This document shows positions 5,931 to 50,401 of a DNA stretch of 64,000 nt, piece after piece. This stretch comes from a phage. The notes under the pieces are model-generated. The model ran no database searches. It saw nothing but the letters and a program-made list of their open reading frames with translations, and was not told the origin of the DNA. The position numbers were made by a program, and so were the translations under genes. Where the stretch lies: sequence record PZ445442.1. One strand, 5' to 3'. Position 1 is the first letter of the stretch. The number at the start of each line of letters is the position of its first letter.

Positions 5931-8354
5931 ATGAGTATGTGGTCGTTCGATTTTGAGTCATCCGGTTTGCTGGAAGACCCAGATCTTTATTATCACTGCG
6001 GTCTGTTTAAAGAGCTGAATAAGAACCGTTTTATGCTGTTCCTTCCTCTAAATGACCGCACACACTACTCCGAGGAGGATATAGAAAAGGCTAAGAACTT
6101 CATTCTGGCAAAGAAAACTCTTTATAAAGATTTTGAAGTTCGCATAGCAGATTTTTCGGAGTTGGAAGGTTGGCTTACAGGCAATTCTGACTGGTCACCA
6201 ACAGCTTTGAACTGCCATAACTGCTACAGTTATGACTTTATGCTGATGGAAAGATTATCCGGTATTCATTTTGATATGTTCCGTGATCCTAAATGCATGG
6301 GGACTATCAACGATCACCAGGTTAACCTGTTTGATACGTTGGCGATGAGCCGAATCTTGTGGCCTGATCGCCCTTTACCAAAAGGTTGTCCGGACTCTGT
6401 ATTCAACCCGGTTACTAAGAAAATGCAGCCTGTTGGTCCCCACGGCCTTATGGCATGGGGCTACGCCCTTGGTAACCAGAAAGTTCAAATTGATGACTGG
6501 CGCGATCTTCCGTTGTGGAAGTATGTGGATCGTGTATTCGAGGACGTTATCATCCAGGAGCTGCTCTGGAAAGAGCTGGTAGCGGAATCAAAAGGTGTAT
6601 TCTACGGCAAATCTGACATGCAGAACTTTATGTACGATCCTGCCAAAGAGAAGCCGAAAGGGTTCAAGAAGATCACCTGGAAGAACGCATTACGCCGAGG
6701 CATGCTGCAGCACTTCCTGATGGAGCTGCAGGCCCGTCAGGGTGTGTATTTTGACATAGATGGAGCTATTGCTTTACGTGACCGTTGCGATGCGTGGATG
6801 AAAGAAATCGCTGATCGTGTTGAACCACAACTACCTTTAAAAGAGTTGTCAATGTCTCAGCGGCCCAAGTTCCCTGAAAAGCCGTTTAACCAAGATGGGA
6901 CAATCTCCAATAATGGTTGGAAATGGTTAAAAGATAAGCTTGGCTATCCTGTAGATATGAGCGCTTTAGAGTTCAAAGCCCCGCCTAAGCGAGCATTTAC
7001 CTCCACAGGGGATGTCAGCAAGATGGGGATAAAATGGTGTGAAGAGATGGGCTGCAAAGACCCTGATAAGATGGCTGATTTCTTGAGAGGCTATATTAAG
7101 GGCACTTCCACACCACAACCTTTACCTAAAGAGCTGATGGATCAGGCAATAAGTGATCTGCAGCAGAAGCGAATGCCTGACTGCAAGATACCTATGAAAA
7201 TCAGCAATCAGGACGACATTAAGCGGTATCTGATCAGTGCTGGCTGGCTCCCGACGATGTGGAGAACTAAGGATGTAACTAAAGACAGCAAGAAGAAAGC
7301 CCTACCTGATGCAGATGTTGATGCACGAGTATATGCATATATGGACGAGCTTTTAGAGTCAGAGTATTGTGATCTGATTATCAACTTCTGGAACAAAACT
7401 GATGCTAAGTTCCAGACAACCGTGCACAAGTTCCGAAGCTTTCCTAACTCCGAAAGGATTAAAAAGGAAGTATTCGGGAAAATACGTAGAAAAGCTAGGG
7501 CACTTATTACTTCTCCGCAACTGAAAGATACGTTTGGACACCTATGCCCGAATCTTGAAAAATTGAACGGAGAGATGGCTAAAGATATCGTCTTGTGGTT
7601 ATCTTTGCGAAACCGCAGATCGGTACTTGATCCAATCAAGGAGGATAAGGTTGATACTGGTCTTCTTAATCACCCACGTTTGAAGATTGACCATAAGCTT
7701 CCTGCTAAAAGCTCTGGATTAACAAACACTTCCAGACAGAAACACAGTATTTGTGCAAACATGCCTAAACCATCTCCTAAAGTGGTCATGGGTAAAGAGA
7801 TGCGTAGTCTGTGGGGTGTTCCTCCAGGATACTTTGAGATCGGTATTGACGGGTCCAACTTAGAGCAGCTTATCGGGGCTTGGGGTGCCTTTGAGTTCGA
7901 CAACGGATTGTATTATGATGTTGTAAGTAACGGGGACGCACACCAAAACAATGCTGAAGCATATACAAAAGTGGCAGGCAGAGAGGTGTCTCGTAACGAC
8001 GGTAAACCTATCACGTATGGGGTTATGTATGGGGCACAAAAAGATAAAGTTGCAGATATGCTGGACATCTCTCCAGAACTGGGGCAGAGAGTAATTGATG
8101 CTCTCTGGGATGCCAACCCAGGTCTTAAGGGGCGCAAAGAGGATCTGGAGAAATTCTGGGAAGCAACAGGTAAGAAATTTATCTACTCTTTTGACGGGCA
8201 TGCCATTTGGACCCGCTCTAAACACTCTTTGCTTAATGCATATCAGCAAAATGGCGGTGCATCGTTGTGCGACTTGGTCGGAATCCTCATGCACCACCAA
8301 ATGGTGAAGCGTGGATGGTATGATGAAGGTGTTCGTCGTATTATTTATTACCAT
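5931..8354 (+). CDS. DNA polymerase, family A, exon 1 (3'-5' exo + pol motifs A and B)
   Basis: Exo I FDFESSG at N-terminus; motif A-like GIDGSNLEQL; motif B KPITYGVMYGAQ; ORF halts at ...RRIIYYH just before motif C. Exon ends on T8354 (group I 5' splice-site U). Confidence 0.85.
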
Positions 8355-9196
8355 AAATAACATTGTGGCTTCGTGCAGTGATGCACGTCGAAAACCTCTT
8401 TAATTGACGGGAAGGCTAAGTTGACTTTTACACCTAAACATGGTAAAAGCTCAATATGCTAATCCGCAGCGAAGACTAAAGGGGTGTAGTTAAAATGGCT
8501 AGATCAGTTGATTATCACGGATATACCGTGTTTGATGATGGAACAATACCTTTATCGAAACGTGATCATACAACAATGTTCTGTTTTGATAATGGTCGAG
8601 GTTACCTTTGCGTAACCATGTTCATCGAGGGGAAGCAGTGCACAAAAGGTGTCCACCACTTGGTTGCTGAATGCTTTGTATCAAACCCTGATCCTGAAAG
8701 GCTCACATGGGTGAACCATAAGGACGGAAACAAATACAACAATGCATACTGGAACCTTGAATGGACCACCCCTGGTGGAAATATCAAACACGCTTATGAT
8801 AATGACCTCAGAGTAAGGCCAGTCGGTGAGTATAATGCCAACGCTGTACTGACCGAGGATGAGGTAACGGAGATTTGCGAACTGTTACAAAGTGGTTTAC
8901 GACAATGCGAGATTAGGGATCTTGGGTATCCTTATGAGACGGTCAGAGCCATAAAGCAAAGAAGACAGTGGAAACATATCTCTAAAAACTACACCTGGTA
9001 GTAACGTTCAGAGACTATCGAAAGCATAGCGCCAACATAAATTGGTGCGAAGAAGCGAGTAGAGTAGGCCAGCAAGTGCGGTCGAAATGGGAGGTGCCTT
9101 GGTAACAAGGTAGTGAGATAGTCCGATCCATACAGGAAACTGTATGGCTGTGCACGTAATGGTGCGGGGTAGCTTAACGACCTACCTGAACTATTG
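8355..9196 (+). mobile_element. group I self-splicing intron in DNA polymerase gene (contains HNH ORF)
   Basis: P1: exon CCAT (8351-8354) pairs with intron GTGG (8365-8368) giving the U-G splice-site wobble; P7 strands CAGAGACTA (about 9009-9017) and GAGATAGTCCG (about 9115-9125); intron ends in G9196; splicing restores motif C (...YYH|DEYQLQV). Confidence 0.7.
8495..9001 (+). CDS. intron-encoded HNH homing endonuclease
   Basis: Track ORF; HLVAECFVSNPDPERLTWVNHKDGNKYNNAYWNLEW HNH_3-like signature; located between P6-region and P7 of the intron. Confidence 0.75.
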   Translation: MARSVDYHGYTVFDDGTIPLSKRDHTTMFCFDNGRGYLCVTMFIEGKQCTKGVHHLVAECFVSNPDPERLTWVNHKDGNKYNNAYWNLEWTTPGGNIKHAYDNDLRVRPVGEYNANAVLTEDEVTEICELLQSGLRQCEIRDLGYPYETVRAIKQRRQWKHISKNYTW

Positions 9197-9550
9197 GATG
9201 AGTACCAACTTCAAGTGCCTGACACACCTAAGTATAAAACCGTATACACCTTCGACACAATTGAAGAGCTGGAAACATTTAAGGCCAAGCAGGAGGCTAA
9301 ACTTCATGTGTTCGACGGTCATAAGTACAAAAAGGCACGCAAGGATGAGGATGGAAACGAAGTGGTTGACAAGGACGGAAATACGGTGTACGATCCTATC
9401 CTGAACGATGACGGAAAGCTTGAACTTATCTGGAGCCCTGTGGGTGAAATGGTGGTGCATTGCTTCTGGCAAGCTTCTAAAATGATGGGAGTCCCGTTCC
9501 AGATCACAGGTGAATACTTGTGTGGTCGTAATTGGGGTGATTGTCACTAA
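9197..9550 (+). CDS. DNA polymerase, family A, exon 2 (motif C and C-terminus)
   Basis: Begins DEYQLQV (motif C HDE after splicing) and ends ...GRNWGDCH, resembling the C-terminal tail of family-A polymerases. Confidence 0.75.
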   Translation, partial: DEYQLQVPDTPKYKTVYTFDTIEELETFKAKQEAKLHVFDGHKYKKARKDEDGNEVVDKDGNTVYDPILNDDGKLELIWSPVGEMVVHCFWQASKMMGVPFQITGEYLCGRNWGDCH

Positions 9551-9599
9551 TGTAAACTATCAACACATGGAAGTGTTGTTGAGCAAAGAGGAGACTTTT

Positions 9600-9884
9600 A
9601 TGGTAGTAGAACCAACAAAAACATTTACATCCATGACTATCCCTGTTATTATGCAGGTGGAGTGTGTTCAGGTATCTCAAGTGTGGCCTGGCACCAAAAT
9701 CCCAACAGGGCCTGATTTCTTTCAGGTTGGGAAAGTGTACAATGTCTGGAAGGCACCAGATTGTTACCCTTTCATTAAAGATGACCGTGGGATGCTGTGG
9801 TACCTTGGAAATGACTTGACACTGCACCTTGGGAATACTATTATTGCAGTATTCAGACTTAACAAGAAGGAGACCGATCAATGA
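9600..9884 (+). CDS. hypothetical protein
   Basis: Track ORF 9510..9884 trimmed to ATG 9600 with AAAGAGGAG SD. Confidence 0.5.
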   Translation: MVVEPTKTFTSMTIPVIMQVECVQVSQVWPGTKIPTGPDFFQVGKVYNVWKAPDCYPFIKDDRGMLWYLGNDLTLHLGNTIIAVFRLNKKETDQ

Positions 9885-48341: not shown

Positions 48342-49604
48342 TCAGCAACCACAACTTCCGTAGTGCTTAACTCGCTCGATAACTTCCGCTTGCTTACCTT
48401 TATTGTAAGGACGGGAGTTAGGACTGGAAAGATATCCAGACACTCTTCGGATCACTGAGATATATTGTTCATCGTGGCATCCGCACGCAGGGCAGCAGAA
48501 CCCTTTAGCTGTTGCACTGAACTCACCAGAGAAACCACACTTGAGACATTTATCCACAGGTTGGTTAATACCAAAATACATAATGTGTTTATACCCGAAG
48601 TCAACAAGAGCCTCTAAAGCATCCAGGTTGTTTTTCAGGTTAGGTGTCTCTACGTATCCGATGTTGCCACCAGAGGAGATCATAGCAAAACCTTCCTCAT
48701 ACTCCCACTTATCAAAAGGAGAGCTATTTATCCATACTGGCTGATGGAAACTGTTGGTGAGATATTCATGCTCGTGCTTCAACACTTCCGGATATTCACG
48801 ATCCAGACAGGTTGCAGCTTTATAGCATAGACTCTCAGAAGGAGTGCCGTACAAGCTAAATGCTAGTCTACTTTCCTTCTTGTATCGCTCACAAGCATCT
48901 CTCATGTGCTGAAGGATTCTAAGAGCTAAAGCCTTGTCACCCTCTCTACCCAAAATCTGACAGGTTTCATACACACCAATATACCCAATACTGATGGAAG
49001 CGTACCCGTCATAGAAGAGTTTATCAATACTCTCTTCAGGACCCAGGCGAGCAAGAGCGCCTTCACACCACATGATAGGGTTCTGCCCTGCCTTGGTGCC
49101 TTTCAGACGGTTAACCCTTACAAGGTGAGCTTCATATGCCAAATCCAGATACTCGTCAAGAACGGCAAAGAAATCAACACCTTCCGTCTTAGCTTTTGCC
49201 GCAATCATTGGTAGGTTAAGGCTAACAACACCCAAGTTGAATCTGCCGAGGTATTTCTCCTCACCTGTTTCCAAGTCATTGTATTTGCTAAGAAAACTCC
49301 GGCAACCCATGCTCGTTACTTTGCCATCTGTCGATCCTGTTACTTTACGATTTAGTGGAACAGAAACAAAGTCAGGATAAATCCGCTCTGCAGAGCATTC
49401 CAGAGCTAATCGTTTCAAATCATAGTTAGGATCTCCAGGGTTCATGTTGACACCCTCTTCTAGGAAGAACAACACTTTAGGGAACACAGGTGTGATACGT
49501 TCTTCACCAAGACCCATTTTGTGGACTTTCAAGTAGTTTTTGGTAATCATTCTACCAAAGACTGAGGTGTCCAGACCTAAACTTAATGTGATGAATGGAG
49601 TCTG
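48342..49604 (-). CDS. nrdD: anaerobic ribonucleoside-triphosphate reductase, exon 2
   Basis: Begins QTPFITLSLGLDTS... (E. coli NrdD: QTPFVTFGFGLGTS); contains GCRSFL and the C-terminal Cys cluster plus glycyl-radical-like RRVSGYL. Confidence 0.8.
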   Translation of the reverse strand, partial: QTPFITLSLGLDTSVFGRMITKNYLKVHKMGLGEERITPVFPKVLFFLEEGVNMNPGDPNYDLKRLALECSAERIYPDFVSVPLNRKVTGSTDGKVTSMGCRSFLSKYNDLETGEEKYLGRFNLGVVSLNLPMIAAKAKTEGVDFFAVLDEYLDLAYEAHLVRVNRLKGTKAGQNPIMWCEGALARLGPEESIDKLFYDGYASISIGYIGVYETCQILGREGDKALALRILQHMRDACERYKKESRLAFSLYGTPSESLCYKAATCLDREYPEVLKHEHEYLTNSFHQPVWINSSPFDKWEYEEGFAMISSGGNIGYVETPNLKNNLDALEALVDFGYKHIMYFGINQPVDKCLKCGFSGEFSATAKGFCCPACGCHDEQYISVIRRVSGYLSSPNSRPYNKGKQAEVIERVKHYGSCGC

Positions 49605-50401
49605 CTGTCTCCTCCCTGTGTTTCCACAGGGCCAGACTATCTCTTACTCTACTTCAATAAGATAATAACCCTTTATTGTGAGATGCTTACCTTCGGCATT
49701 TCCTTCGATAGCCCTATGAACGTTACCTACGTTCAAGTTTAAGGCTTTTGCACAGGCATAGAGTGAAGGATATTCACCCACCAAGGTTTTCCCTTTGTAT
49801 GCCTGCACTTTCCTATAGCACTTACCTGGACAAAGTCCTGTTCGGAAAGCATGTCTCTTATTATCTTCCGGCAAAACCCACTCTAGGTTAGACGGATGAT
49901 CATTCAATGTATTGCCATCTTTATGATTCACTTCCCAGTTTTCAGGGTCTTCTGGGACATCCGGCAAACAATACAAGGCAACAACCCTTGAGGTTTGGAT
50001 TCGAATCTTTTTACCTTTGTGGTTGAAAGAGTACATATAACGGCGTTTAACATGCTTGTTACCTTTTCCATAACCTCCCCACAATATTGGGTGTAGCATT
50101 CCACGTTTCCCGTATACGTTTCCAACCTCATCAATCACATAGTTTGATTCTTCACCATTAAGAATGATCTTTTTCATAGAGCCTCTCCATTTCGAAGTTA
50201 GTATTTCAACTAACCCCTACACTACTTGGTTCAGAAATGTTTGTCAAGCATCTCTGCCTTTCGTTAGTCGTTACAACCGTTCCAACTCCTGTAAGAACTA
50301 GTCACGGGATTGGCATAGCTTTCGCCTTAGCGTTCCCCGTTAGCCGGATTTACCGACCCCTCTTATGAGGTTAGGAGAGTTTTACAACGGCCAGTTTGTT
50401 A
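49605..50401 (-). mobile_element. group I self-splicing intron in nrdD (contains HNH ORF)
   Basis: Exon 1 ends ...AACGGU; intron GCCGUU pairs with it (P1, U-G at splice site, 10-nt loop as in the pol intron); P7 strands GACUA-ACGAAAGG and GAGAUAGUC; GAAA-tetraloop hairpin CCCTGTGGAAACACAGGG; intron ends in G; splicing gives ...SVNG|QTPF.... Confidence 0.7.
49644..50177 (-). CDS. intron-encoded HNH homing endonuclease
   Basis: WEVNHKDGNTLNDHPSNLEWV HNH signature; located between P7 5' strand and P7' 3' strand of the intron. Confidence 0.75.
   Translation of the reverse strand: MKKIILNGEESNYVIDEVGNVYGKRGMLHPILWGGYGKGNKHVKRRYMYSFNHKGKKIRIQTSRVVALYCLPDVPEDPENWEVNHKDGNTLNDHPSNLEWVLPEDNKRHAFRTGLCPGKCYRKVQAYKGKTLVGEYPSLYACAKALNLNVGNVHRAIEGNAEGKHLTIKGYYLIEVE

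Follow-up and report, generated by a model that had tools for sequence, protein, structure and literature searches.

The td intron of phage T4, which encodes I-TevI, belongs to subgroup IA2 of the group I introns, has its endonuclease open reading frame (ORF) looped out from P6, and carries RNA structure over the translation start of that ORF. Its host gene codes for thymidylate synthase and I-TevI is a GIY-YIG rather than an HNH enzyme, in contrast to the intron described here. Other known systems interrupt DNA polymerase genes. I-HmuI, encoded by a group I intron in the family-A polymerase gene of SPO1, is the closest solved structure to our endonuclease ORF (PDB 1U3E). That intron lies at E. 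coli Pol I site 674, in the fingers, whereas ours lies at site 881, in motif C; in addition, the SPO1 system belongs to Gram-positive hosts, and I-HmuI has Asp74 where our ORF has Asn. According to PMC3428280, the introns of the T7-like phages PhiI/W31 interrupt the same polymerase family as ours (T7-type family A), are likewise IA2 introns with an HNH gene in P6a, and stand at site 881, the motif C His, matching the H/DE position of our intron (a slash marks the junction throughout). According to the same source, their ribosome-binding site is also involved in structure. PhiI/W31 are podoviruses whereas our phage is a 140-kb myovirus, and the likeness is taken from PMC3428280; among the blastn matches listed for our intron there was no T7-like phage. 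The CB7_50 intron of Pectobacterium phage vB_PatM_CB7 / phiTE (Certrevirus, same subfamily) occupies the identical site (...IIYYH/DEYQLE), uses the same P1 guide, has a homologous ribozyme 3' domain and an HNH ORF in P6, and was found by RT-PCR to be removed from the mRNA (PMC7344957). It differs from ours in its length (687 nt versus 842 nt), in an expanded P5 region, and in a different, shorter HNH protein of 127 aa.

The DNA analyzed here, which we call the window, is a stretch of 64,000 nt of phage sequence (record PZ445442.1). Over positions 7800-9700 the window matches Escherichia phage EmilHeitz (Bas49, MZ501062.1) at 100% identity. EmilHeitz is a Vequintavirus, an rV5-like myovirus of the BASEL collection. 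In MZ501062.1 the DNA polymerase gene, bas49_0077, is annotated as a two-piece joined CDS with bas49_0078, a 'putative homing endonuclease', inside it, and the intron boundaries in the BASEL genomes were fixed via comparative genomics (PMC8594841). The parts of the locus are as follows.

5931-8354, plus strand: DNA polymerase exon 1 (ORF of 808 codons, family A), whose last residue is the motif C His, ...IIYYH
8355-9196, plus strand: group I intron, subgroup IA2, 842 nt, missing from ECP26 at exactly these boundaries and supported by RF00028 and by covariation
8495-9001, plus strand: HNH homing-endonuclease gene, 168 aa, I-HmuI-like (PHROG 59, 1U3E, dN/dS), annotated as bas49_0078
9197-9550, plus strand: DNA polymerase exon 2, 117 codons plus stop, DEYQLQV...GRNWGDCH, whose first residues are the motif C Asp-Glu

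We hold with high confidence that positions 8355-9196 are a mobile IA2 group I intron in the family-A polymerase gene of a Vequintavirus, carrying an I-HmuI-like HNH gene. The original prediction, made from the letters of the window, had proposed a group I intron with an HNH endonuclease gene at this place, and the covariance-model matches, the covariation, the presence and absence of the insertion among relatives, the identity of the spliced product and the likeness to I-HmuI all support it. Its reading of the three ORFs agrees with ours: the polymerase ORF, read without splicing, occupies 5931-8360 and terminates in ...RRIIYYHK-stop; a downstream ORF in the frame of 9197 runs from DEYQLQV to GRNWGDCH; and the HNH ORF lies at 8495-9001. 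When T8354 is joined to G9197, as it had also proposed, the reading frame continues as ...IIYYH/DEYQLQV, and the resulting 925-aa protein equals the deposited QXV77979.1 in every letter, so the depositors' junction is the one predicted. The intron is already annotated in its own GenBank record, with this same junction, and is of an ordinary kind and low novelty. A search for literature on this polymerase intron specifically in Vequintavirus found no describing paper; the rV5 genome paper mentions introns in the terminase gene only and lists the polymerase as 775 aa, an entry that is apparently the first exon alone.

The boundaries of the insertion follow from an intron-less relative. In alignment, ECP26 reads ...TATTACCAT/GACGAATATCAG... 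(TACCAT/GACGAA) where the window has 842 extra bases between T8354 and G9197. Moving the boundary by a single base spoils the match to ECP26, which leaves no sliding ambiguity, and the insertion is exactly 8355-9196. Using tblastn, we found the spliced junction peptide uninterrupted in dozens of related phages at 97-100% identity, and the joined reading frame agrees with their intact polymerases.

The alignment with a family-A polymerase that had been proposed as a check of the prediction was also carried out. The spliced protein aligns with residues 468-658 of T7 DNA polymerase (E = 7e-16), a region that includes motif A (GIDxSxLE), motif B (KxxxYGxxYG) and motif C, where ...YYHDEYQL faces ...WVHDEIQV of T7, so that the HDE falls on T7 H653-D654-E655. 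All three motifs of a T7-type family-A enzyme are therefore present, with the motif A Asp and the motif C Asp-Glu, and the last of these straddles the junction. In the Pfam scan, exon 1 alone matched DNA_pol_A at 27.9 bits, under the cut-off of 34.3; matches of all three ORFs were sub-threshold, and more was learned from searching PHROGs and the PDB sequences. We searched exon 1 for an HDE and found none. Given the T7 alignment at the junction and the lack of an HDE in exon 1, the insertion point falls within motif C, where the intron, in phase 0, separates the His codon of the catalytic HDE from the Asp codon. The interruption had been placed 'just before motif C': motif C is indeed what is interrupted, but the position is inside the HDE, after the His codon. 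The sequence is consistent with the further claim that the unspliced message would give a polymerase without the catalytic Asp and Glu.

A default Rfam scan of the whole window, run at the gathering score, reported nothing. In E-value mode, RF00028 (Intron_gpI) matched positions 8345-9146 over model positions 1-253 with 38.9 bits against a gathering score of 50 (E = 3.4e-8 for the region, 2.1e-6 for the window as a whole); this is the covariance-model scan that had been named as a check of the prediction. In the alignment a stretch of 510 nt, the ORF, is looped out of P6, and it is because of this insertion that the score stays under the gathering score. Introns at the same site that lack the ORF exceed the cut-off, with 91.2 bits in 18-1-2, 75.6 in SYGMH1 and 64.7 in rV5. 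The ribozyme core of SYGMH1 is 96.8% identical to that of the window, which makes it a natural ORF-deleted control. 'No Rfam hit' at default settings would thus be a false refutation here, since ORF-bearing group I introns can fall under the gathering score. The structure built by hand for the window consists of the following elements.

8351-8356 with 8363-8368, plus strand: P1, exon CCAU and intron AA paired with the internal guide UUGUGG (cmscan, pair counts)
8372-8377 with 8382-8387, plus strand: P2 hairpin CGUGCA-GUGA-UGCACG with a GNRA loop, compensatory in 5/6 pairs and paired in 100% of cells
8394-8400 with 9089-9095, plus strand: P3, ACCUCUU with GGGAGGU, three double-change pairs, e.g. 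CUCUUU/AAAGAG in PVP-SE1
8405-8468, plus strand: P4-P5-P5a domain
8405-8411 with 8463-8468, plus strand: P4 (cmscan, RNAfold, pair counts)
8414-8416 with 8458-8460, plus strand: P5 (cmscan, RNAfold, pair counts)
8420-8431 with 8443-8455, plus strand: P5a, from folding only
8469-9007, plus strand: P6/P6a with the ORF looped out, a helix present in 12/12 homologues with or without an ORF, with compensatory changes in Av-05
8469-8470 with 9006-9007, plus strand: P6 (G8469.U9007, C8470-G9006), continued by ACUA 8475-8478 with UAGU 8999-9002, read from the sequence
8483-8491 with 8987-8995, plus strand: P6a, GGUGUAGUU with AACUACACC, read from the sequence
9011-9017 with 9119-9124, plus strand: P7, G-A-GACUA (A9012 bulged) with UAGUCC, paired in 100% of cells, two compensatory pairs
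9018-9020 with 9056-9058, plus strand: P7.1, tentative, with an inner hairpin at 9029-9035 and 9042-9048, from folding only
9064-9066, plus strand: GUA linker, invariant in 12/12
9067-9070 with 9080-9083, plus strand: P7.2, double changes in 3/4 pairs
9096-9101 with 9106-9111, plus strand: P8 hairpin GCCUUG-GUAA-CAAGGU, double changes in 4/5 aligned pairs
9128-9135 with 9140-9147, plus strand: P9, four double-change pairs
9151-9155 with 9162-9166, plus strand: P9.1, two double-change pairs
9167-9172 with 9182-9187, plus strand: P9.2, three double-change pairs
9196, plus strand: terminal guanosine (omega G), at the boundary given by the intron-less allele and present in 12/12 homologues
9197-9200 with 8361-8364, plus strand: possible P10, GAUG with CAUU, read from the sequence

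The core helices P3-P4-P6 and P7-P3-P8, with the P3/P7 pseudoknot, are present and show covariation. The P1 that had been predicted, with a U-G pair at the splice site, forms as C8351-G8368, C8352-G8367, A8353-U8366, U8354.G8365, A8355-U8364 and A8356-U8363; the U.G wobble of this 6-bp helix is kept in 12/12 homologues, as is the predicted terminal G, G9196, as final intron base. Both P7 strands lie within the segments proposed for them (CAGAGACUA and GAGAUAGUCCG). Subgroup IA2 is distinguished by two extra helices, P7.1 and P7.2, linked by G-U-A between P7 and P3' (PMC3428280). By this criterion the arrangement P7.1-GUA-P7.2 places our intron in IA2, with a GUA invariant in all 12 homologues, a P7.2 that covaries, and a P7.1 that is variable and comes from folding only.

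The hand-built structure was projected onto an alignment of 12 introns, all at the polymerase site ...(Y/A/S)YH/DE..., from which P6 interiors and ORFs had been removed first. The sample covers six named genera and two unclassified phages: EmilHeitz, rV5 and SYGMH1 (Vequintavirus), Av-05 and 18-1-2 (Avunavirus), PVP-SE1 and SSE-121 (Seunavirus), phiTE (Certrevirus), Aeromonas phage phiA019 (Plateaulakevirus), Pseudomonas phage SPA01 (Pakpunavirus), A73 (unclassified Vequintavirinae) and Vibrio phage K470 (unclassified). P7.1, which has no consistent alignment across the homologues, was omitted from the pair counts, and PH357 was omitted since it has only an intron-like 3' fragment outside any polymerase gene. 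Standard pairs occupied 96.2% of 756 cells, against 36-42% when the partners were slid by 1-3 columns. Changes on both sides were seen in 30 of 65 pairs (2-14 in the slid controls), and not one of 500 shuffles matched the observed paired fraction, the compensatory counts or the covariation score. Together with the covariance-model E-values, the shuffles argue that the pattern is not due to chance. Compensatory pairs occur in P2, P3, P7, P7.2, P8, P9, P9.1 and P9.2, and in the three P9 helices 98.6-100% of cells are paired. All six pairs of P1 form in all 12 introns; five are invariant, including U.G, and the innermost is A-U in 11 and G-U in one. P1 is also constrained by the coding sequence. 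The sequence of P6 is wholly different between lineages and cannot be aligned, and a helix of 5-11 bp nevertheless stands there in 12/12, closing either a tetraloop or a 500-nt ORF.

The ORF that is looped out of P6 matches PHROG 59 (HNH endonuclease) with E = 9e-38, and its sole match among solved structures is I-HmuI (E = 4.5e-6). In that alignment H75 and N96 of the ORF fall on H75 and N96 of I-HmuI, so that both the catalytic His and the metal-binding Asn of an HNH enzyme are present, and Asp74 of I-HmuI is replaced by Asn. Pfam HNH_3 matched 20 residues only, with 17.7 bits (E = 0.0028) under its cut-off of 24.8. Homologues of the ORF occur in about 1,500 phage records, and 74 publicly available contigs carry this same ORF. 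It is intact in all intron-bearing relatives examined, with a dN/dS of 0.09 versus APECc02 and 0.035 versus FFH2, which indicates a protein maintained by purifying selection. A Shine-Dalgarno-like AAGGGG at 8479-8484 overlaps P6a, the AUG stands at 8495, and the UAG stop, at 8999-9001, is within P6; in SSE-121 and A73 the P6 helix even includes the start codon. With the ribosome-binding region and the stop codon in P6/P6a, folding of the ribozyme would restrain translation of the endonuclease, and judging from these positions it probably does. This agrees with what PMC3428280 describes for PhiI/W31 and Pf-WMP3.

The distribution of the intron was followed with a probe of 200 nt centred on the intron-less junction, which matched 99 related records. 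The junction was uninterrupted or nearly so in 58 of them, and in the remainder the match is broken precisely at probe position 100/101. Some close relatives have the intron and others lack it, and the insertion nucleotide is always the same. The intron-bearing genomes show at least three states: about 30 records have the HNH intron, and introns without an ORF come in an rV5-type form of 276 nt and another form of 328 nt. ORF-less copies at this base range from 254 to 328 nt. PVP-SE1 has the same ribozyme with a LAGLIDADG gene 3' of the 5' strand of P7 and no HNH gene in P6.

Beside the insertion site, the alleles differ in a short exon-2 signature. We compared a small sample of 11 Vequintavirus alleles that encode the same protein sequence. 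Over its first 12 bases, exon 2 reads GATGAGTACCAA in five of six intron-bearing alleles and GACGAATATCAG in four of five intron-less ones, with synonymous differences at +3, +6, +9 and +12. The next 138 bases of ECP26 are identical to the window, yet these four synonymous positions differ. The exceptions are FFH2, which bears the intron and has the +3 T only, and Murica, which is intron-less with intron-type bases and suggests, from its sequence, a precise loss of the intron. Over the intron-bearing alleles of the 12-intron sample, exon 2 starts with GAUGA in 11 of 12, and intron-less alleles have GAC there in four of five. We take the signature as a lead that points to a short co-conversion tract or to recoding of a target immediately 3' of the insertion. 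The nick made by I-HmuI falls 3 nt downstream of the insertion site of its own intron (PMC3428280), and that region is where our intron-bearing and intron-less alleles differ.

A more specific proposal can be built on these differences, and we put it forward tentatively, as less likely than not. In this proposal, the four exon-2 positions would mark the recognition sequence of the endonuclease; intron-bearing phages would have been recoded to immunity, the +3 T at the same time strengthening P10; and the intron would serve as a weapon against co-infecting rV5-like phages that lack it, damaging their polymerase gene, with translation of the nuclease gated by P6a over its ribosome-binding site. 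A precedent for a competitor-damaging weapon is the intron endonuclease of PhiPA3 (PMC11620839).

The same data could come from an intron that still splices and no longer moves, its HNH protein being inactive or repurposed (e.g. as a maturase-like splicing helper or in another nuclease role) and its presence and absence being due to recombination and loss. The Asn in place of the I-HmuI metal-binding Asp and the weak HNH_3 match would fit an inactive protein, and the persistence of ORF-less copies in many relatives (rV5, SYGMH1) and the intron-type bases of Murica would fit loss. Against this, strong purifying selection acts on an ORF that is intact, keeps the catalytic His75 and Asn96 and recurs on the 74 public contigs, and the signature beside the insertion is the trace expected of co-conversion. 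We consider an immobile intron unlikely.

Far less probable is a free-standing homing-endonuclease cassette that has fractured the gene, so that 809-aa and ~118-aa products assemble with no RNA splicing. Many GenBank records do list the halves as separate CDSs, and the second ORF might conceivably begin from a TTG at 9194. However, a Shine-Dalgarno sequence was looked for before 9194 and none was found, there being no ribosome-binding site ahead of 9197, and the catalytic HDE would be split over two chains. Moreover, the noncoding portion of the insert folds as a conserved group I intron with covariation, inserts of 254-328 nt without any ORF still interrupt the gene at the same base, and the CB7 homologue is spliced out of its mRNA (PMC7344957). 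An intervening element of another type has a negligible probability: inteins are present in this gene in relatives (Mangalyan), but an intein is ruled out here by a stop that the exon 1 frame meets two codons into the insert and by the 11-28 stops found in each frame, and a group II intron by the lack of a match to any group II or other Rfam family and of a reverse-transcriptase ORF.

Returning to the reading of a mobile group I intron, we infer splicing of the intron in the window by analogy, from the RT-PCR result on CB7 and from the shared site of PhiI/W31; its self-splicing and the activity of its endonuclease are likewise inferred. The transcript would fold, and an external guanosine would attack after U8354. 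The freed exon 1 would then attack after G9196, aligned by P10 (GAUG 9197-9200 with CAUU 8361-8364), and ligation would restore ...YYH-DEYQ..., which would make the polymerase active. Any RNA translated unspliced would end in ...YYHK-stop, without the catalytic Asp and Glu. When a co-infecting relative has a polymerase allele without the intron, the endonuclease probably nicks or cuts that allele close to the insertion site, and recombinational repair would then copy the intron and a few flanking exon bases into it, which is homing.

In summary, the intron belongs to a family that is already known and has experimental support, its insertion site is a known homing site, and it opens no new question of its own. 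Its practical weight lies in annotation and phylogeny: default Rfam misses it, and many GenBank records of related phages split the polymerase halves or call them 'hypothetical protein', so that an essential gene appears split in pangenome and marker-gene analyses. The motif C nucleotide is a homing hot spot, where related ribozymes carry several HNH types in P6, a LAGLIDADG gene in the P7.1 region, or no gene at all. The rV5-like phages, including BASEL strains, occur with and without the intron and offer a convenient cross system for homing and for competition between phages.

In most GenBank records of related phages, among which we count rV5 (DQ832317; stretch L004), the two halves of the polymerase appear as two individual genes or bear the label 'hypothetical protein'. 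For rV5, the genome paper gives the polymerase as 775 aa and mentions introns for the terminase gene alone (PMC3606486); the 775-aa product is apparently exon 1 by itself.

The window has a second intron, within nrdD, the gene for the class III anaerobic NTP reductase. In the record, nrdD is annotated as two joined pieces, between which lies a putative homing endonuclease; the intron recalls that of T4 nrdD. The features are as follows:

Window ~49551-50398, minus strand: second intron, in nrdD
Window 49644-50177, minus strand: HNH-like ORF of 177 aa in the nrdD intron
Window 49614-49901, minus strand: weak Intron_gpI match in the nrdD region (27.1 bits, E = 0.007)

When the window was compared with the deposited EmilHeitz record (MZ501062.1), the offset was 64682 at 4.8-11.8 kb and 64586 at 47.9-51.4 kb, so the window carries 96 nt extra at some point in the 11.8-47.9 kb interval.

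Other insertions were found in the polymerase gene of relatives. In other Vequintavirinae this gene is interrupted by additional group I introns ~350 nt upstream of where the motif-C intron sits. They score 36-48 bits in Rfam and in some cases contain HNH genes; the EmilHeitz polymerase has none there. In coordinates of the relatives' stretches, these upstream introns are:

L006 (Av-05), L009 (18-1-2) and L008 (SSE-121), 14-217
L024 (CB7), 558-1270

Escherichia phage Mangalyan (OR449013; stretch L003, 1145-2140) and VB-EcoM-WM (PQ014731) have an in-frame insert of ~996 nt in exon 1, after ...SNGDAH, and carry the motif-C intron as well. This insert starts with CYSGDTQILTEKGW, contains LLIAIHDDGH, and ends in VAVCGN followed by Cys; in appearance it is an intein that carries a LAGLIDADG endonuclease. 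Outside any recognisable polymerase gene, an 82-nt intergenic stretch of Pseudoalteromonas phage PH357 (L014, ~1500-1582), adjoining an endonuclease VII gene, was 78% identical to the P9.1-P9.2 end of the motif-C intron.

Four synonymous differences in exon 2, at +3, +6, +9 and +12 (window 9197-9208 compared with the relatives' stretches L001, L016-L019 and L022), follow the presence of the intron, with two exceptions. Murica has the intron-type bases yet lacks the intron, and FFH2 has the intron but, among the intron-type bases, only the T at +3; the FFH2 intron has a P2 of the rV5 type and a differing 3' end (...AACAGAUG). These exceptions indicate recombination mosaics.

In PVP-SE1 (NC_016071; stretch L007, 601-1519), the motif-C site is occupied by the same ribozyme, where the endonuclease gene is not the HNH gene in P6 but a LAGLIDADG gene located 3' of the P7 5' strand, in the P7.1 region. 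This suggests that different endonuclease genes have invaded one intron independently.
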